This document shows, one piece after another, positions 2 through 11,306 of a stretch of DNA of 11,306 nucleotides; within the stretch, counting starts at the first letter, position 1; the number at the start of each line of letters is the position of its first letter. Source of the stretch: an uncultured archaeon (lineage in GTDB: Archaea > Asgardarchaeota > Heimdallarchaeia > Heimdallarchaeales > Heimdallarchaeaceae); assembly GCA_964549075.1 (NCBI GenBank), contig CAZJUB010000084.1:1-11306 (forward strand). The letters are read 5' to 3'. The notes beneath the pieces are model-generated. The model had not been told where the DNA came from, made no database searches, and saw only the letters and a list, made by a program, of their open reading frames with translations. Position numbers and translations under genes: made by a program.

Positions 2-493
2 GCCATATTACACGAAACATTGCTATCGCACAACAAGGAACTTCCAACAAAAAATCTTGACAGAATTTTGAAATTCTGGGGAGTGGAGAATAATCTGAGC
101 GATTTTTCTAAAAAAATCACACAAGCACGAAGCATTTTAGATACCGCTAATCTCCTCAGAGATACCACCAAAACTTGTATCGAAGAACTCCTTTTCAAGT
201 GTAATTTGTTATTTGATTACTTCAAAGATGTACTCCCACAACGAAACAATCAGCTAGAACAGATTCGCGAACGGATTGAAAGATTAGTCCAAAAAACTAT
301 TATTCCCTATGCCAGCATAAGAGATGCAGTTTTAATTATGATAGTGTCGTTTTTCCCCCTTTACCTTAAAGAACCAGCCTTTAAATTGTATATCATGCTT
401 AATCTTCGAAAAGATTTAAACATCGATTTATCCAGATTAAGGAAAGATTCAACAAGATTTATTCAAAGATTAGAAAAATTAAAACAGTTATAG
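2..493 (+). CDS. Hypothetical alpha-helical protein, C-terminal part (5'-truncated by window edge)
   Basis: Frame is open from base 2 (AILHETLLSHNKE...) to TAG at 491-493, followed by TAA, so the TTG at 20 is probably not the true start. Leu/Lys/Glu-rich helical composition; no recognisable motif. Confidence 0.6.
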   Translation, partial: AILHETLLSHNKELPTKNLDRILKFWGVENNLSDFSKKITQARSILDTANLLRDTTKTCIEELLFKCNLLFDYFKDVLPQRNNQLEQIRERIERLVQKTIIPYASIRDAVLIMIVSFFPLYLKEPAFKLYIMLNLRKDLNIDLSRLRKDSTRFIQRLEKLKQL

Positions 494-1805: not shown

Positions 1806-1809
1806 GTGA
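1804..1809 (+). promoter_or_regulatory. Shine-Dalgarno AGGTGA overlapping the oppD stop; favours ATG 1815 as the oppF start
   Basis: TTTAGGTGAAAAAAATG: AGGTGA lies 5 nt before ATG 1815 and matches the archaeal GGAGGTGA-type motif. Confidence 0.6.
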
Positions 1810-1814
1810 AAAAA

Positions 1815-3038
1815 ATGGGTAGTTCAGAATCTTTTATCGAAAGACTTGCTTCTAAACAAGAGGCAAAAGGTCTTCTAGCAGATCGTATTAGAACAAAAGA
1901 GATGGGAGAAGACGTTATTTTAGATGTAATAAACTTGAGAAAATTCTTTGATATTCCTGTGCCTTTTGAAACCACTTGGTTTATGATTGCATTTGTTGGA
2001 GCACTAGTATTGTTCGCATTTTACCAGCTTTATGGTTTAATCGTTATTGGTGCAATCATTGTTCTGTACTTTGTCTTACCTTACATTCCACCATTTAACA
2101 AACGACCTCGAGTAGCGCATCTTAAAGCGGTTGATGGTATCAGTATACAAATCAAGAAAGGTAAGATTGTAGGACTAGTTGGTGAATCAGGTTGTGGAAA
2201 GAGTACTGCAGCTAAGACTATTATCAGATTGCTTGAACCTACATCTGGTGCGGTTTATTTCAAAGGAATTGATATTAATCGTTTAACCTCTGAGGAAATG
2301 AAAGAAATCAGAAGACATCTACAGATTGTATTTCAAGATCCTTATGCTTCTCTAAATCCTCGTGCAACAGCTCATGATATTATCATCGAACCTTTTGACA
2401 TTCATGGTGTTGCTTCAGGAGATGAAGCTAGTTACAGAGTTCTTACACTTCTGAAAGATGTAGGGCTTGCACCTCATCATGCTTATCGTTATCCTCATGA
2501 ATTCAGTGGAGGACAGAGACAGAGATTAGGAATCGCAAGAGCTTTAGCATTAGAACCTGACTTTATTGTGATGGACGAACCAGTCTCAAACCTCGATGTA
2601 TCTGTTCGTGCTGCTATCATCCAACTAATCCTCGAACTACAGAGAAAAATGGGTTTGACTTATCTGTTCATTGCTCATGATTTATCTCTAGTAAAAATCC
2701 TCTGTGATGAGGTTAATGTAATGTATTTAGGAAAGATTATGGAAGCTGGAACTAGTGATGAAATTTTCGAATCAATGATGCACCCCTATACTAAGGCTTT
2801 GATTTCTGCAGTACCAATTGCAGACCCAACAAAACGATCGAAGAAAATCTTCCTTACAGGAGATATTCCTACTCCAATTAATCCACCTCCAGGATGTAAG
2901 TTTCAAACAAGATGCCCGTTAGTTTCTGACGTGTGTAGAGTTGAAGAACCACCAGCAAGATGGTATTCTGAGAGTCATGTAGCTTACTGTCATAACATTG
3001 AAGGTGGAGAATCAAGTCCAGATTTCTATAAACAATAA
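1815..3038 (+). CDS. oppF: Oligopeptide/dipeptide ABC transporter ATP-binding subunit (OppF/DppF family) with an inserted hydrophobic hairpin
   Basis: LKAVDGIS, Walker A GESGCGKST, Q-loop VFQDPYASLNPR, YPHEFSGGQRQR, Walker B VMDEP, IAHDL, HPYT, C-terminal CKFQTRC...C...CH. Alternative GTG start at 1806. A ~37-residue uncharged hydrophobic stretch is encoded at nt 1977-2087. Confidence 0.93.
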   Translation: MGSSESFIERLASKQEAKGLLADRIRTKEMGEDVILDVINLRKFFDIPVPFETTWFMIAFVGALVLFAFYQLYGLIVIGAIIVLYFVLPYIPPFNKRPRVAHLKAVDGISIQIKKGKIVGLVGESGCGKSTAAKTIIRLLEPTSGAVYFKGIDINRLTSEEMKEIRRHLQIVFQDPYASLNPRATAHDIIIEPFDIHGVASGDEASYRVLTLLKDVGLAPHHAYRYPHEFSGGQRQRLGIARALALEPDFIVMDEPVSNLDVSVRAAIIQLILELQRKMGLTYLFIAHDLSLVKILCDEVNVMYLGKIMEAGTSDEIFESMMHPYTKALISAVPIADPTKRSKKIFLTGDIPTPINPPPGCKFQTRCPLVSDVCRVEEPPARWYSESHVAYCHNIEGGESSPDFYKQ

Positions 3039-3076
3039 CCGTTCTTATTTTCTTTCTCTTTTTATTTTACTTCTTA
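3034..3076 (+). terminator. Pyrimidine/T-rich archaeal-type terminator after oppF
   Basis: TTATTTTCTTTCTCTTTTTATTTTACTTCTT starts 6 nt after the TAA stop; weak AATAA/TTATT stem. Confidence 0.55.
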
Positions 3077-3160
3077 CCTCTTAGACTAAAACAAGATTTA
3101 TTTACTTCAATTCAGAATATATGATGTTATTTAATAGTAACTACTGAGAGGTTATAATCC

Positions 3161-3913
3161 ATGAGTAGAGTTAATCTTGAATCAGCTCAAAACAACATAG
3201 AACGATTGTCGAATAATCTTAATGAATTACAGCAGATGCTATCTAGTAAGAGTGATGAGCTGAGCGCAAAAATCAGAGAATTTAATGATGTTCTCACTTC
3301 CTTCTTCAGAGAAGCAGATGAAAAAACCCAATCATTCAATAAGGAAGAGGACAGAAGGAGAACTAATAATGCAGAATTAGATCAGCTTAATAACAAACTC
3401 CAAGAACTGACCGTTAAAAAGGATATTTTACAATCCGAAATAGCTAGTAAACAAAGGGATATCGAGCAATTAAGTGCTTTAGTGCTTGAACGGGAGAAAT
3501 TACGAACAGAAGCTAGTTTGCAAGTTGATTCGCTTACTGAAAGAATTTCTAATTTTAATAGAAAAATAGAAGAGACAGATGTTCTCGCCAATGCTCTAGT
3601 AGAAGAAACCAAAGAGCAAACAAGAACACTTGAAATCAAAAATGTTGAATTAACTAATCAATATAATAGGATAGTTACACGCGCTAAATCCTTAGAGTAT
3701 CTGATTAAAAAAGACATCGTTATGCTTCCCGAAATTCAAGTTCTTCGCAGTTTGAATACTCCGGGCATTGATACTTTAGATAATCTTCGAAAAACCTCTG
3801 GAGTTTCAGAAGAAGTAATCAGAAAAATATTGCAAGATCTAGCACGACGAGAAATTGTTGCTTATGACCCATCTACTGGAAGAATCCAGCTTTTAACAAG
3901 GATTGATATTTAG
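3161..3913 (+). CDS. Coiled-coil protein with C-terminal winged-helix (wHTH) domain, paralog A; function unknown
   Basis: GAGAGGT RBS at 3146-3152. Residues ~1-180 are Pro-free, E/K/L/N/Q-rich heptads. Residues ~190-250 (PEIQVLRSL..TLDNLRKTSGVSEEVIRKILQDLARREIVAYDPSTGRIQL) fit three helices plus a beta-wing. Confidence 0.85.
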   Translation: MSRVNLESAQNNIERLSNNLNELQQMLSSKSDELSAKIREFNDVLTSFFREADEKTQSFNKEEDRRRTNNAELDQLNNKLQELTVKKDILQSEIASKQRDIEQLSALVLEREKLRTEASLQVDSLTERISNFNRKIEETDVLANALVEETKEQTRTLEIKNVELTNQYNRIVTRAKSLEYLIKKDIVMLPEIQVLRSLNTPGIDTLDNLRKTSGVSEEVIRKILQDLARREIVAYDPSTGRIQLLTRIDI

Positions 3914-3924
3914 GAGGAATGAAG

Positions 3925-4677
3925 ATGTCAATAGAAAAACTTAATGAAATAATGAACGACCTGAAGACAGGTATAGAAGAATATGCATCCCGATCTTCTT
4001 CAACTATTGTTAATTCTAAGGCAATTATTGATTCAACAGCTAATGATGTTAAAGCAATTCCAGAATATCTTCTAACTCTCCAGAATTCTATAAATGAAAT
4101 TCAAAGAAGTAACAATGAATTAGAAGAAAAAATAGCAAATGTCAAACAAGCTACTGATACTGTTACTACAGAAATAGAAATTAATGAGAGTAATAAAAGC
4201 GACCTTTTAGAAACAGAAAGAAAGAAACGAGCTCAAAAAGAAGATTTAGAGAGAGAGATATCTGAGCTCCAAGAAAAGAAAGTTCAACTTGACAATGAAT
4301 TTAACGAAGTAGCTGCCATCTCATCTAGAAAGGAGCAAGAATATAATCAATTACAGATTAGCTCTAAAGAAGAAATAACAAGAATAAATCAACAAATAAG
4401 TGAAGCTACTACTAGGGTTAAACAAGCTGAATCAGAGAACAAATTAATTGTTTATCTGATGGATTCGGGATTAATGGATGTTCCTGAAGCTGAAGTGGTT
4501 GCTATAGTTTCCTCCTATCCTAATGGTTTGAAGTTAGATGAAATTAAGCAGAAAGTCAACATGCCACCGGTAAGAGTCCAACCGACTATTAACAACCTCC
4601 TTGAAACAGTTTTAGAGTACGATATTCCTTCTGATTCTTATAGAATTATTGAGACAATTAGAAAAGAATTTTTGTAA
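3925..4677 (+). CDS. Coiled-coil protein with C-terminal winged-helix domain, paralog B; function unknown
   Basis: AGGAGG RBS at 3912-3917, 7 nt before ATG 3925 (alternative ATG 3919). Long coiled coil, then PEAEVVAIV..LKLDEIKQKVNMPPVRVQPTINNLL.TVLEYDIPSDSYRI, which aligns by eye with paralog A. Confidence 0.85.
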   Translation: MSIEKLNEIMNDLKTGIEEYASRSSSTIVNSKAIIDSTANDVKAIPEYLLTLQNSINEIQRSNNELEEKIANVKQATDTVTTEIEINESNKSDLLETERKKRAQKEDLEREISELQEKKVQLDNEFNEVAAISSRKEQEYNQLQISSKEEITRINQQISEATTRVKQAESENKLIVYLMDSGLMDVPEAEVVAIVSSYPNGLKLDEIKQKVNMPPVRVQPTINNLLETVLEYDIPSDSYRIIETIRKEFL

Positions 4678-4711
4678 GTTTTTTCTTTTTTGCTTACATT
4701 TTTTTCTTTTT
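4673..4711 (+). terminator. T-rich terminator after the coiled-coil pair
   Basis: TGTAAG-14nt-CTTACA inverted repeat with several T5-T7 runs directly after TAA 4675-4677. Confidence 0.6.
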
Positions 4712-4748
4712 ACCAAATCAAAATAAAGAAATTGATTTATGTATTTGA

Positions 4749-6200: not shown

Positions 6201-6228
6201 ATAGGAAAATCCTATTACTCTTTTTTTT
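6201..6228 (+). terminator. Small hairpin plus T8 between the convergent gdhA and dikinase-like genes
   Basis: ATAGGA-AAA-TCCTAT (6201-6215), then T8 at 6221-6228, which lies inside the last codons of the opposite gene. Confidence 0.5.
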
Positions 6229-9190
6229 CTTCTTGCTTTATTATCATTCCTTCTTTATTTTTAGCATCAATTCTTACTATAAGTGGTTCTTCTAAACTCA
6301 CATGATTCACATATTTCAGCTCATGTTTTGGAGTTTTAGATTTTAGCCAATCCCAATCAATGAAGTGATTTTCTTGGTTGTGTTTTATATAAAAATACCC
6401 GATATTAGCTGTGACTATGTTATGAAAGAAATGAGTACCTTGCGAGAAATCTACAGTAAAATCTTTAAGTGAAGTTTCAATGATTGCTCTAGTACCACTA
6501 ATGTTGCTCCACTTTACAGGAATACCTAAGAACCTATCAGCTGTTCCCCATCGTCCAAATCCAATTAGGAGATATGGTTTGTCTTCTTTGGTCAACAAAC
6601 TATTCAAATTATCTATTTCTTCAACCATTTCTTGAGTTTGAGTTTTATCGAATGTCTCTGGTTTAACATATACAATATCTCTGATGTCTTTTCTAAGCAA
6701 GTTACCAGAAACATGGTTAGAGTAAGCTAAAATTTGACTCATATCAACTGAGCCATAATCTTCAGTTAAGAGGACTTCTTGTTGTAAGAATGGACGTATT
6801 TGTAGAATAGAAAAAACATTTTTCTCGTTAGGTAGTTTTTTGAAATTCCCTGCAAATTCTATTTCAATTGAAGAACCAAGTGCTCTTTCTCCAATTTTTA
6901 GGATTCTTTCAACCAATTCTGCTAAGGGGAAAATTGAATGTTTTAATTGTTGGCTAAATGTAATCACGGGAGAGCCTTCTCCAAAAAAACCCTCTCTTAA
7001 AGTATCAGATTCAAAATCATATGAATCCGCAATTTTTGTTAAAGCTTTATCCTTTATTGCATCAGAAAGATTCAATCTCTCTATGTAAGGATCATCATTT
7101 AAAATATCAAATTCTTTTTTAGTTAAATCAATTCCATAATAATACTTTTGACTCTGTTCAAGAAGTATATCAGGAGTTGAGAAAAAGTTAATTTTTGGAT
7201 ACCTAGGACAAAAACGAACAGAGGCTTCACCTTCTACAATAGTTTTTCCAAGACCTAAAGCGATGTGAGCTATACGATCTTCTGATTTCATATAATCTCC
7301 AAACGGATAGTAATTGTAAGAAGAAGCAGTTCCTGAAAAATCAGGATAGAATCGTTTATTATGTTCTTGTCCTACAACTTCTTGAATAACAACCGCCATC
7401 TTGGATTCTTCTACAGTTTGTTGAATTGTCTCAGCATAAGACTTCGCTAATTTCAAGAATTGAGATGCATAAACCAATTTTATTGCAGTGCAAAGTTGTT
7501 TAACCCTATTTTTTTTATCTACCTGATTGTTTGGTATCATATAGGTATCAAAAATTCCAGCAAATGGTTGATAAGCTGAGTCTTCAAGAAGGCTAGAAGA
7601 TCTTATTGCTAAAGGTCCTTTTAAGTCAGTCAACAAAAACTGAAAATCAGCTATAATTGAATCAGAAAGTTTAGCTTCAACAAATTTTCTTTTAACCTTA
7701 TCATCACTTGCATCAGATAAGGCAAATTTGTATAGATTGTTTTCCTCCATGAATTTATCATACTCATCGGTTCCAATGACGATGGTTTTCGGGATTTCTA
7801 CTGAGACATCTTTGAATTCAGTATCTACCATAAAAGAATTCAAAAGAAACATAAGAAAGGCAATACCTCTCCCTTTACCTCCTAATGAACCAGGTCTCAA
7901 ACGTGTGAACAAGATATCAGGATGATAATTTTCACGTGAAAAATCGTTGATTATACCTTTTGTTTTTTCAATAACAAGTTCATTAATCGTCTTCAATAAA
8001 AAGTCTTTAAGCTCTTCTTTTGTGAACTCAGACACCTTTCGAGGTTTAAGTGTTTCAGCAATTTCAAATTCTCCTCTCGCGTTTAACCAGTTAGAAAAGT
8101 GATCATTTTTACCATGAAAAACCAGAGAATCGACTGGAACTTCTGATAGTTCATTATAGAAGGTTATAACATCGTTAGCTTTACCGAAAACTTCTCCGTC
8201 TTGATTTCGAAAGATAAAGTCACCAAAGCCCACATAATCAAGAAGCCACCTACGTAAGTCCCACATCATACCATGTAATCTCTTGTTAATGAAAAAACAC
8301 CCCATCTCTTCAGCTTCATCCCTATAAAATTCTTTATTAGATTGGAGGACTATTGGTAGGTTGATATTTTCTTCTTTTATCTTCTTTGCAAATAGAAAAC
8401 CAGCATCTTTGTTGAGTTTACCATCAACGGGGAATTCTATATCTGAAATTACTCCCATCAAATAATCTTTGTATCGTTCATAGTAGGAAAGAGCCTCTTC
8501 ATAGGTTTCTGCTAAAAGTATTTTTGGTCTTATTCGCATTTTCAAAAGATCTTGAAAATCATTAGTTCCTTCGCTTAACAATCGGTGTGTTTGTCGCATG
8601 ATTTCGCCATAAATTTCAGGAAGGAGAAGAGAATAAAATCGGATAGAATCATCTACAAATATGAAAACTCTGACATTTGCATGTTGAGTATCATAATCTG
8701 CATTAAATTTATCTTCAAGATGTTTAATGATAGCAACAAAAATCTTGGAGTCACCATTCCAGACAAAAACACGATCGATTCCTTTTCTCTTTTCATATTC
8801 AGGGAGATACTTTATTTCAACAACACTATTCAATAAAAGTATAACAGGGATATCTTTTATTGATTTTACATTAGCTCCAAATGAAAAAGCATCCATATCA
8901 CCCAGTCTTCGCATAGTTATAACTAAGTCAAAATCATGCTCTTCTAAAAGATCGAGAGCTTCATTTGCAGAAGAAACACGAGTAATTCTTGGTAGGGTTC
9001 TTAGATTCAAATTCTGAAATTCTTCATATATTTGATCTGATAAACGACCATCTTCTTCCAACATGAAACTATCATAGATACTAGAAACAAGAAGAACATT
9101 TCTCATTCTTTTACTCATCAATTCATAGAAAATTTTGTATTTAGGCTTGTACTCCAAGAAGAAGCTCTCTGCTTGTTGATGTGGTGTCAT
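6215..9190 (-). CDS. Receiver-domain-containing PEP/pyruvate-binding (PPDK_N ATP-grasp) domain protein; not a canonical PEP synthase
   Basis: N-terminal REC-like domain (NVLLVS..FDLVITM..IPVILL); second REC (FIFVDD180-181, VISD250IEFP, LPIVLQS, FFINK); HxxxxHFSNWL motif; ATP-grasp motifs SLGGK439GRG, LAIRSSSLLED, FAG, MAVVIQE, GLG, IEIEFA, LQIRP; C-terminal GRWG...SQGTH920FF. No PEP-utilising TIM barrel. GGAG RBS at 9198-9201. Confidence 0.88.
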   Translation of the reverse strand: MTPHQQAESFFLEYKPKYKIFYELMSKRMRNVLLVSSIYDSFMLEEDGRLSDQIYEEFQNLNLRTLPRITRVSSANEALDLLEEHDFDLVITMRRLGDMDAFSFGANVKSIKDIPVILLLNSVVEIKYLPEYEKRKGIDRVFVWNGDSKIFVAIIKHLEDKFNADYDTQHANVRVFIFVDDSIRFYSLLLPEIYGEIMRQTHRLLSEGTNDFQDLLKMRIRPKILLAETYEEALSYYERYKDYLMGVISDIEFPVDGKLNKDAGFLFAKKIKEENINLPIVLQSNKEFYRDEAEEMGCFFINKRLHGMMWDLRRWLLDYVGFGDFIFRNQDGEVFGKANDVITFYNELSEVPVDSLVFHGKNDHFSNWLNARGEFEIAETLKPRKVSEFTKEELKDFLLKTINELVIEKTKGIINDFSRENYHPDILFTRLRPGSLGGKGRGIAFLMFLLNSFMVDTEFKDVSVEIPKTIVIGTDEYDKFMEENNLYKFALSDASDDKVKRKFVEAKLSDSIIADFQFLLTDLKGPLAIRSSSLLEDSAYQPFAGIFDTYMIPNNQVDKKNRVKQLCTAIKLVYASQFLKLAKSYAETIQQTVEESKMAVVIQEVVGQEHNKRFYPDFSGTASSYNYYPFGDYMKSEDRIAHIALGLGKTIVEGEASVRFCPRYPKINFFSTPDILLEQSQKYYYGIDLTKKEFDILNDDPYIERLNLSDAIKDKALTKIADSYDFESDTLREGFFGEGSPVITFSQQLKHSIFPLAELVERILKIGERALGSSIEIEFAGNFKKLPNEKNVFSILQIRPFLQQEVLLTEDYGSVDMSQILAYSNHVSGNLLRKDIRDIVYVKPETFDKTQTQEMVEEIDNLNSLLTKEDKPYLLIGFGRWGTADRFLGIPVKWSNISGTRAIIETSLKDFTVDFSQGTHFFHNIVTANIGYFYIKHNQENHFIDWDWLKSKTPKHELKYVNHVSLEEPLIVRIDAKNKEGMIIKQEEKKE

Positions 9191-10874: not shown

Positions 10875-11306
10875 ATGGATCCTGAGAATCGTGGGAATAA
10901 CACCATAATTCATGATGATGATTTCAAGGAATCAGGTGCTATTATTCCATTGTCTCAACGAGATGCACTTATTGTTGAGATGTATGAAGATGGTTTATCT
11001 ACATATGAAATTTCAGAGCAATTAGATATTAATCGACACACAATCTCCAGAGTCCTCAAAGAAAATGAGATAGAAACCAGAACAATTGCTGATTATCACA
11101 AGTTTAAACATAATGATATTGAGCTGTTATTCAAAGAAGGAAAAAGCAAACACGAGATAGCTAAAGAGTTAGGAATAACATACTATACTGTAAGAAAAGT
11201 ACTTGAAGATAAAGGATTGATTCTCAATAAGAAAGATAGAGAAACAGTGGCCATTGCTCGTTATATCCAAATGAAAAATAAAGGCTATGAAAACGAGTAT
11301 ATAGCG
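10875..11306 (+). CDS. Tandem helix-turn-helix repeat DNA-binding protein (3'-truncated; absent from the ORF track)
   Basis: ATG 10875 is open to the window end (144 codons): MDPENRGNN...IVEMYEDGLSTYEISRALDINRHTISRVLKENEI...IELLFKEGKSKHEIAKELGITYYTVRKVLEDKGL...YIQMKNKGYENEYIA. Two full HTH units and the start of a third. TTTTATAT box near 10833-10840. Confidence 0.85.
   Translation, partial: MDPENRGNNTIIHDDDFKESGAIIPLSQRDALIVEMYEDGLSTYEISEQLDINRHTISRVLKENEIETRTIADYHKFKHNDIELLFKEGKSKHEIAKELGITYYTVRKVLEDKGLILNKKDRETVAIARYIQMKNKGYENEYIA

Follow-up and report, generated by a model that had tools for sequence, protein, structure and literature searches.

Two adjacent genes, here called A and B, lie on an 11,306-nucleotide (nt) stretch of DNA from an uncultured archaeon of the Heimdallarchaeaceae (assembly GCA_964549075.1, contig CAZJUB010000084.1, our contig C84), and this whole stretch is referred to below as the window. 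The source genome measures 3.2 Mb and is 89.7% complete, and relatives of the window's proteins carry the submitter labels Heimdallarchaeaceae, Heimdallarchaeota or Asgard. Each gene spans 753 nt including its stop codon and encodes a protein that is predicted to be a coiled coil of about 180 residues (the rod) ending in a winged helix (the head), as outlined in Table 1. The genes are separated by only 11 nt, and the stop codon of A falls within the Shine-Dalgarno sequence of B. The GGAGG of this sequence stands 7 nt from the ATG at 3925 and 1 nt from an alternative ATG at 3919. The start at 3925 is supported by the lengths of relatives, since B-family matches measure 250 to 252 amino acids (aa) in 70 of 75 cases; A-family matches are exactly 250 aa in 45 of 50, with 4 of the remaining 5 being fragments. 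Across 23 Heimdall loci the gap between A and B is 13 to 31 nt as judged by tblastn edges, and in more distant loci the genes abut or overlap.

The signals around the pair can be read in the same way. Thirteen aligned upstream regions have the box AACAAGATTTATTTA in common, with TTAT invariant and a T-rich tract preceding it, and either TGAGAGG or TGTGAGGA is kept ahead of the ATG of A. By the archaeal promoter consensus the box would be a B recognition element (BRE)/TATA site. The T-rich tract behind the upstream gene is likely a zone of archaeal oligo-T termination, which would shield the pair from transcription arriving from upstream, and the four oligo-T runs behind B are likely an archaeal terminator. 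A bacterial-type promoter and terminator scan, which is unsuited to archaea, stayed at chance level, and its hairpin search found no terminator on the forward strand at either tract. We read A and B as a self-contained two-gene unit with its own putative archaeal promoter. The original prediction, made from the sequence of the window, had described two reading frames of 753 nt and 250 aa with the start at 3925, coupled through TAGGAGG and bracketed as an operon by T-rich tracts; direct reading and the lengths of relatives bear out the first point, the position of the A stop codon the second, and the two tracts together with the conserved promoter-like box the third.

Table 1. Coordinates of the A/B pair, its signals and other features. 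Positions are those of the window unless a locus (L) or genome (G) handle is given.
Feature	Position	Strand	Remarks
T-rich tract	3039..3089	+	3' of the stop codon of the upstream ABC ATPase gene; direct reading; same place in 13 aligned Heimdall loci
AACAAGATTTATTTA, BRE/TATA-like promoter box	3090..3104	+	about 57 nt 5' of the A start
TGAGAGG, Shine-Dalgarno-like	3145..3151	+	9 nt ahead of ATG 3161
Gene A	3161..3913	+	250 aa; predicted rod, residues 3-183; predicted C-terminal winged helix, residues 187-250 (nt 3719-3910)
TAGGAGG	3911..3917	+	A stop codon (TAG 3911-3913) overlaps the B Shine-Dalgarno sequence; translational coupling
Gene B	3925..4677	+	250 aa; predicted rod, residues 3-180; predicted C-terminal winged helix, residues 184-250 (nt 4474-4674)
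Codon of B Pro46	4060-4062	+	motif DDVRAIPEY
Four oligo-T runs	4678..4713	+	directly 3' of the B stop codon; direct reading
Third paralogue (C) of the window's genome	G000:C26:25198-25650; locus L081:1492-2094	minus	about 191-200 aa
C next to topoisomerase VI B and A genes (family f31)	L062:1098-7137; L080:1515-7285		two loci
C, 346-aa gene, Roadblock gene (family f30)	L075:2543-6185
Kinase-like gene of family f20	L035:2379-3254; L049:4728-5564; L050:4322-5158		just 5' of the pair, same strand
Arf-type small GTPase gene (family f7)	L042:1665-2201	minus	immediately downstream of the pair
Ras-type small GTPase gene (family f4)	L047:2000-2563	minus	immediately downstream of the pair
Open-ended reading frame, left edge	2-493	+	163 aa
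Second oligopeptide-type ABC ATPase	1806-3038	+	410 aa; GTG start
991-aa protein	6215-9190	minus
Two tandem small helix-turn-helix domains, right edge	10875-11306	+

The first question is whether A and B belong to a known family. Pfam and NCBIfam return only sub-threshold coiled-coil noise for either protein (DUF4200, SMC and Rad50, for example), and phmmer searches of the PDB with A and B return only chance matches. Full-text literature searches turned up no description of the pair, which supplementary tables might list as an orthologous group. The A/B family is undescribed and is widely kept in Asgard archaea; no characterised family in Pfam, NCBIfam or the PDB fits it, in keeping with the novelty first proposed. 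The Joint Genome Institute (JGI) name 'chromosome segregation ATPase', which points to SMC and Rad50, reflects coiled-coil matches of 20 to 25 bits against cut-offs of 567 to 729, and no ATPase domain (ABC-type head or Walker motifs) is present in the 250 residues of A or B by Pfam at E ≤ 1 or by AlphaFold2. The precomputed Pfam tag PF24161 on many relatives is likewise noise, because it denotes CCDC39, a coiled-coil model of 925 positions.

A and B are related to each other at the level of profiles. A plain BLASTP comparison of the two proteins gives no significant match (E 0.28). With profiles, hhalign joins the full-length Heimdall profiles at 93.9% over their last 95 columns and the heads alone, taken from across the phylum, at 98.6% (E 6.9e-16, 73 columns). 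On this profile evidence A and B are paralogues with homologous heads. A tree of 25 upstream and 25 downstream genes, from which the cut L039 pair with its unclear start was omitted, parts the two sets by a single branch with a Shimodaira-Hasegawa-like approximate likelihood-ratio test (SH-aLRT) value of 97. Because one branch separates both sets, the duplication is older than the sampled lineages and the gene order is fixed; going by the tree, it predates the split of many Asgard lineages. The rods have since diverged to 15 to 20% identity across those lineages.

With family alignments, AlphaFold2 gives each protein a single helix along the rod followed by three helices and two strands (H-H-H-E-E), the three helices and beta-hairpin wing of the winged helix-turn-helix (wHTH) superfamily, with a predicted local distance difference test (pLDDT) score of 90.9 for A and 87.1 for B; B carries an additional short helix at its end. 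Residues 187 to 250 of A superpose on SelB (1lva) with Z 8.6 and a root-mean-square deviation (rmsd) of 2.1 over 60 residues, on AF1382 (2qvo) with Z 8.3, and on CRP, MarR, IclR, Rio2 and Z-alpha with Z 7.5 to 8.2; overall, superpositions on solved winged helices reach Z 7.5 to 8.6 at rmsd 2.0 to 2.9. The A rod resembles any long coiled coil, and the best Foldseek E-value with the A model is only 6.5e-3, to MarR-type regulators. The coiled coil and winged-helix head first assigned to each gene agree with these models and superpositions, and neither a different head fold nor unrelated heads, the outcomes named as counting against the prediction, was found. The head motif proposed earlier does align, at the profile level only, and its spacing is corrected to K-x3-YL-x8-PE from x7; the conserved proline does lie at residue 190 in A and 187 in B. 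A second proline, B Pro46, sits at an e position within the predicted continuous helix. It is invariant in 33 of 33 Heimdall B sequences and has no counterpart in A, and it may mark a local kink or a recognition point.

Pairing of the two chains was judged from sequence statistics computed with our own scripts, in which heptads are anchored on the proline of the head's Pro-Glu (PE) motif and the g-e' charges of a parallel dimer are scored. The heptad phase runs 5, 2 and then 6, with breaks near -160 and -40, in nearly all of 23 A and 23 B rods, giving both rods three heptad segments with two stutters at equal places; a one-residue gap puts four B rows (L034, L036, L045b and L052) one position out of step. 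Hydrophobic residues fill 0.65 to 0.69 of the a and d positions and only 0.11 to 0.23 of e and g, which is a two-stranded composition. Across 42 same-genome pairs from 13 genome families, the parallel in-register score is +5.71 for A:B, -1.76 for A:A and +1.29 for B:B, and A:B lies above the homodimer mean in 37 of the 42 pairs and 12 of the 13 families. Six heptad-shifted A:B registers score from -2.4 to +2.3, and 1270 non-cognate pairings across families score 0.02 ± 3.29. In an earlier run of 21 pairs, a mid-segment scan gave 5.24 in register against -1.05 to 0.76 for 12 shifts, none of 1000 shuffles reached the in-register score, and a crude antiparallel model peaked at 1.0. The cores of the same 21 pairs hold about 7 charged a/d residues per A chain and 5 per B chain (146 and 105), and these coincide in 8 layers, compared with 18.6 expected and 17 to 30 at shifted registers. 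The A:B signal thus depends on both register and lineage, as co-evolving contact positions would produce. Coiled coils nearly in register had been proposed from the window itself, and the common heptad frame with its two stutters agrees; the proposed parallel heterodimer likewise gains support at the sequence level, where in-register A:B complementarity beats that of either homodimer. A and B probably bind each other as a physical heterodimer.

Finding further copies of the pair requires care, as long coiled coils attract unrelated matches. When 1.84 billion representatives were searched with the full-length profile, giant coiled-coil proteins dominated the 17,304 matches at E ≤ 0.001, and only 50 matches reached E ≤ 1e-30. 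Among the best 150 of the 17,304, almost all of those that reach the head are single-stretch proteins of about 206 to 254 aa or shorter fragments, and none that covers the head is longer or fused. At E ≤ 1e-5 a phylum-wide profile matches 365 of 400 genomes, but weak matches in five inspected genomes proved to be coiled-coil noise or members of a third family, C, and a threshold of E ≤ 1e-20 was therefore adopted. At this threshold, a full-length A match is found in 106 of 190 Asgard genomes that are at least 90% complete. These include 23 of 23 from the window's class (families f1, 7/7; f4, 2/2; f5, 11/11; f7, 3/3), as well as f9 (3/3), f11 (2/2), f12 (1/1), f26 (1/1), f27 (3/4), f20 (71/89) and f19 (1/5). 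No match at this threshold occurs in f31 (0/40), f14 (0/5), f13 (0/3) or several small families. All named relatives are Asgard.

B follows A wherever the DNA is present. A is followed by B in 23 of 27 Heimdall loci, the remaining 4 of which end at a contig edge, in 19 of 20 distant Asgard loci, where 1 is cut, and in both of two further loci; the order therefore holds in 44 of 44 informative loci. Phyletic distribution and conservation of the pair within Asgard archaea, suggested at the outset as a check, thus come out in its favour. One genome carries two tandem A/B pairs (L045:1468-4588) whose A and B copies take mirrored positions in the tree, which argues that the pair was duplicated as a unit. 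Two pairs are also present in genomes G002, G003, G004 and G094, and duplicate pairs can be arranged in tandem, as in L045, or at separate loci.

The C family provides a useful comparison. Its members, a coiled coil followed by a winged helix, are found in 170 of the 190 near-complete Asgard genomes, usually as a single copy, and also, as a shorter protein, in lineages that lack the pair, such as f31 (39/40); the window's own genome has one (Table 1). By hhalign, C is a homologue of A and of B alike, at 98.4% in each case. It has the same domain order as A and B but differs in being single, in its variable rod length (proteins of 170 to 337 aa), in its self-complementarity and in being far more widespread. 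By the same g-e' charge score it is self-complementary in 15 of 19 sequences, with a mean of +4.2. Judged by charge, C would behave as a homodimer should, and A and B as partners. The original prediction had named homologues occurring singly as a sign against a heterodimer; A and B are never single where the DNA is present, although the distant paralogue C is. A single Bathyarchaeota cluster with a score of 0.90 in an Atlas look-up is a lead that the C family may reach beyond Asgard archaea. In 2 of 2 f31 loci, the genes for topoisomerase VI B and A come immediately 5' of the C gene and share its strand; C is followed by an unnamed gene of 334 to 338 aa, a Roadblock/LC7 gene and then a radical SAM gene. 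The string of C, a 346-aa gene and Roadblock recurs in f30.

The length of the rod is also conserved. In all 21 matched genomes, A measures exactly 250 aa, and the rod from Met1 to the PE motif measures 185 to 189 residues in 15 of 23 A and 15 of 23 B sequences as called, most outliers being over-extended starts where the first possible start codon was taken. At about 187 residues, it is nearly constant across Asgard lineages. A coiled coil rises about 0.15 nm per residue, and the A:B rod would by this measure be about 27 nm long; the rod of the original prediction stands, and its length of about 25 nm is adjusted accordingly. The two chains differ in their exposed faces. In the 21 matched genomes, the entropy of exposed b, c and f positions is 1.05, 0.98 and 1.08 in A, against 0.98 and 1.06 in the core, and 1.70, 1.54 and 1.70 in B, against 0.96 and 0.94. 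The exposed face of chain A is therefore as conserved as its core, and that of B is much freer. Conserved exposed patches on A cover residues 4-25, 88-100, 112-117 and 134-142. A fixed length together with a conserved face on one side suggests a spacer that binds something along chain A.

With this information in hand, a model of the complex can be put forward. A and B would be co-transcribed and translationally coupled. Their products would pair obligatorily, in parallel and in register, as a two-stranded coiled coil of about 27 nm that holds the twin homologous heads adjacent at the C-terminal end and both N-termini at the opposite end. The complex would act as a non-enzymatic linker or adaptor of fixed length: the two heads would close on one partner like a pseudo-symmetric clamp, and something else would be bound by the N-terminal tip together with the outer face that is conserved in chain A. 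The pair would have arisen by duplication of a homodimeric coiled-coil and winged-helix ancestor resembling the surviving C family. Taken whole, this is the explanation we favour, at somewhat better than even confidence. Its linker component is put forward because rod length is nearly constant although the rod sequences have diverged, and the chances for that component appear evenly balanced.

Several observations weigh against the model. In 84 of the 190 near-complete genomes, among them all 40 of f31, the pair either is absent or escapes detection, and its function is therefore not universal in Asgard archaea. Neither the window nor the 140 open reading frames (ORFs) from 20 distant loci contains a conserved neighbour gene that hints at a partner. 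The single f4 locus prefers A:A (+10) over A:B (+5), and core layers in which both residues are polar show no depletion (74 observed, 75.5 expected; 21 pairs). Two of the four Heimdall pairs in the 21-pair run did not come from the same genome, a fault mended in the run of 42, and the lineages that enter the pairing statistics are not independent of each other but related. Common stutters would also be passed on to paralogues that each form a homodimer of their own. The winged-helix fold of B is drawn only from AlphaFold2 secondary structure and profile matches. Finally, the nearest relatives of the heads by profile are DNA-binding wHTH proteins (MarR, Lrp, Lrs14, TrmB and TFE-type), which suit a DNA role at least as well as an adaptor role.

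This last point leads to the strongest alternative, in which A:B is a DNA-binding factor (for chromatin, bridging, segregation or transcriptional regulation) whose heads clamp DNA in the manner of MarR and whose rod serves as dimeriser, spacer or bridge. The head profiles do match DNA-binding proteins best. In searches of the PDB, the B-head profile finds MarR/EmrR (3nrv, E 3.8e-5) and an Lrs14-like protein (6cmv, 1.6e-4), and the A-head profile LrpA (1i1g, 3.2e-4) and 3nrv (5.2e-4); cullin, Mnd1 (4y66, E 0.054) and the winged helix of CdvB (2xvc, E 0.083) are chance-level matches of the A head. In Pfam at E ≤ 0.01, MarR is matched by 11 of 18 B heads, and TFIIE_alpha, TrmB and MarR_2 by 5, 4 and 4 of 24 A heads, respectively. 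For MarR or MarR_2, the matches of relatives go down to E 1e-6, which is close to the family cut-offs or short of them. No Pfam wHTH family is matched at E ≤ 0.01 by the two heads of the window itself. A parallel dimer would also give the heads the pseudo-twofold symmetry that such clamps use, and in f31 the paralogue C adjoins topoisomerase VI genes. Other observations speak against such a role. Over the last 64 residues the net charge averages -0.2 in A and -2.0 in B, the rods are acidic, and across the phylum alignments neither the recognition helix nor the wing has conserved basic residues; in Heimdall A proteins the recognition helix starts GVS-[DE]-[DEQ]. Head charge and conservation thus argue weakly against sequence-specific DNA binding. 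No palindromic operator is seen in the 13 aligned upstream regions, and a fixed rod of 187 residues would far exceed the needs of dimerisation. A DNA-binding factor is possible but clearly less probable than the linker model. As for the heads themselves, their neutral to acidic character and the lack of conserved basic residues lead us to lean, by a narrow margin over even, to a protein as their partner; a nucleic acid is a tentative second choice, and a role in self-assembly into filaments is improbable.

A bolder form of the linker model can also be considered. In this form A:B would be a one-sided ruler or tether of about 27 nm, descended from a universal C-like homodimer whose gene was duplicated and whose charges were re-wired into an obligate heterodimer. 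The heads would dock on one structure (candidates are the chromosome, the coat of a membrane, and an assembly that is cytoskeletal or under GTPase control), and the face of chain A and the N-terminal tip would hold a second structure at a set distance. We regard so specific a role as doubtful.

Constant rod length could alternatively reflect precise dimer stagger within a cytoskeletal filament or lattice, of which the rod would be the building block, as in intermediate filaments or crescentin. Intermediate-filament rods have a conserved length and a conserved stutter, and the A/B rods keep their length and two stutter positions across the phylum, a likeness in design only. Lateral packing would moreover explain why the exposed face of chain A is conserved, and some relatives match Filament or crescentin models. 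Those matches lie below the Pfam cut-offs and are typical of coiled-coil noise, and neither A nor B of the window matches the Filament family. The sequences offer nothing in support of polymerisation, and a globular pair of winged helices with short N-termini is unlike the head and tail domains of intermediate filaments. We consider a filament unlikely.

Still less likely are two separate homodimers, or a four-helix A2B2 bundle, from genes that are adjacent only through a common pathway. The inherited heptad frame, the mildly favourable B:B score and the f4 locus described above all speak for homodimers. On average, however, A:A is unfavourable, the charged a/d residues of each chain would face themselves, and the A:B signal is specific to register and lineage; the low hydrophobicity of e and g speaks against a four-helix bundle. 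The pair also duplicates as a unit, and a self-complementary rod is exemplified by the single-copy C family. An accessory of the ESCRT system, which remodels membranes, be it a divergent ESCRT-III protein whose winged helix is like that of CdvB or a winged-helix adaptor resembling ESCRT-II, is the least probable of all, for although coiled-coil and winged-helix proteins (arCOG11741, arCOG09748) occur in ESCRT loci of other archaea in the main-text parts of PMC10936438, the A-head profile weakly matches 2xvc and the size is near that of CdvB, A and B match neither Snf7 nor any other ESCRT family in Pfam at E ≤ 1, are modelled as a single uninterrupted helix, in which the heptads run on for about 116 residues without a break, in place of the ESCRT-III hairpin, have no Vps4, Snf7 or ESCRT-II gene beside them in the window or among the 140 ORFs of the 20 distant loci, and have one homologue labelled by its submitter as Hermodarchaeota, a lineage without ESCRT according to the same parts of that paper.

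The pair can be set beside known systems. Among these, Hop2-Mnd1, a eukaryotic recombinase accessory that binds DNA and stimulates Dmc1/Rad51, is closest in design. As described in PMC4402518, it is a rod-shaped parallel heterodimer of paralogues with three zipper segments, two discontinuities and juxtaposed winged helices at one end. A and B are likewise two paralogous chains of about 200 to 250 residues with three heptad segments and two stutters, and their sequences suggest a parallel arrangement with adjacent winged helices as well. The winged helices are N-terminal in Hop2-Mnd1, however, and C-terminal in both A and B, and the A/B rod is longer and predicted to be straight. The Pfam models of TBPIP/Hop2 and Mnd1 match neither the whole proteins (E ≤ 1) nor any of 24 A and 18 B heads (E ≤ 0.01), and A and B, unlike Hop2-Mnd1, show no evidence of DNA binding or of a recombinase link. 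Homology to Hop2-Mnd1, Ska1 or CdvB, designs that the original prediction had called to mind, was not found in these searches. The closest relatives of the heads in sequence and fold, the MarR, Lrp, TrmB and TFE-type wHTH domains (PF01047, PF12802, PF01978 and PF02002), are DNA-binding domains of compact regulators; in A and B, the domain instead caps a rod of 180 residues and is neutral to acidic. Two further systems resemble the pair in design, with no homology claimed. Sso10a/Sul10a, from archaea, joins a winged helix at its N terminus to a coiled coil through which it dimerises, giving a small antiparallel homodimer, and Spc24-Spc25 has a heterodimeric coiled-coil stalk with paired globular RWD heads that dock on a partner.

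Winged helices and coiled coils have been proposed as ancestral ESCRT building blocks in the main-text parts of Makarova et al. 2024 (PMC10936438). The arCOG11741 and arCOG09748 proteins treated there share with A and B a coiled coil and a C-terminal winged helix, thought to contact proteins, but they adjoin Vps4 and ESCRT-III genes in non-Asgard archaea and have extra domains, whereas A and B have no ESCRT neighbours. The A/B pair is not mentioned in those parts, supplementary tables aside, and no linkage to CdvA or Vps4/CdvC occurs in the window or among the 140 ORFs of the 20 distant loci. The pair is not an ESCRT-III, SMC or compact wHTH regulator.

The importance of the pair lies in its constancy. 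It is compact and stays intact as a unit: every one of the 23 near-complete genomes from the window's class has it, as do several other Asgard classes. Its length is fixed, and its register and one of its faces are conserved, which are the usual marks of a structural machine part. Together with the self-complementary C protein that survives in the same genomes, it provides a natural example of how a homodimeric coiled coil can become an obligate heterodimer. If A:B does act as a ruler, the route would equal the one that yielded eukaryotic heterodimeric coiled-coil adaptors such as Hop2-Mnd1 or Spc24-Spc25. The proteins are small, soluble-looking and easy to express, so that pairing, shape and partners can be tested directly, and the partners, once found, could reveal a new piece of Asgard cell organisation.

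The surroundings of the pair vary between lineages. In f1, judged by ORF size and orientation only, the order of two ATP-binding cassette (ABC) ATPase genes, the pair, a 446-aa gene and a 991-aa gene recurs in 8 of 11 loci. The 991-aa protein of the window pairs a weakly matching response-regulator receiver domain with PPDK_N, an ATP-binding domain of phosphoenolpyruvate-utilising enzymes. In f20, and only there, a gene of 279 to 292 aa with weak, sub-threshold matches to RIO, Kdo and APH kinases lies just upstream of the pair in three of three loci. Of 20 distant loci, 2 have a small GTPase gene downstream of the pair, Arf in one and Ras in the other; as such genes abound in Asgard genomes, the adjacency is treated as local. 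Upstream of the pair in the window, the second oligopeptide-type ABC ATPase is extended at its N terminus by about 100 residues, which include a long hydrophobic stretch, and its ATPase domain starts only at about residue 110; the stretch is a possible membrane anchor, unusual for a soluble ATPase subunit. At the edges of the window, the open-ended frame on the left is without a family, and the two helix-turn-helix domains on the right match HTH_23, HTH_7 and resolvase-like models.

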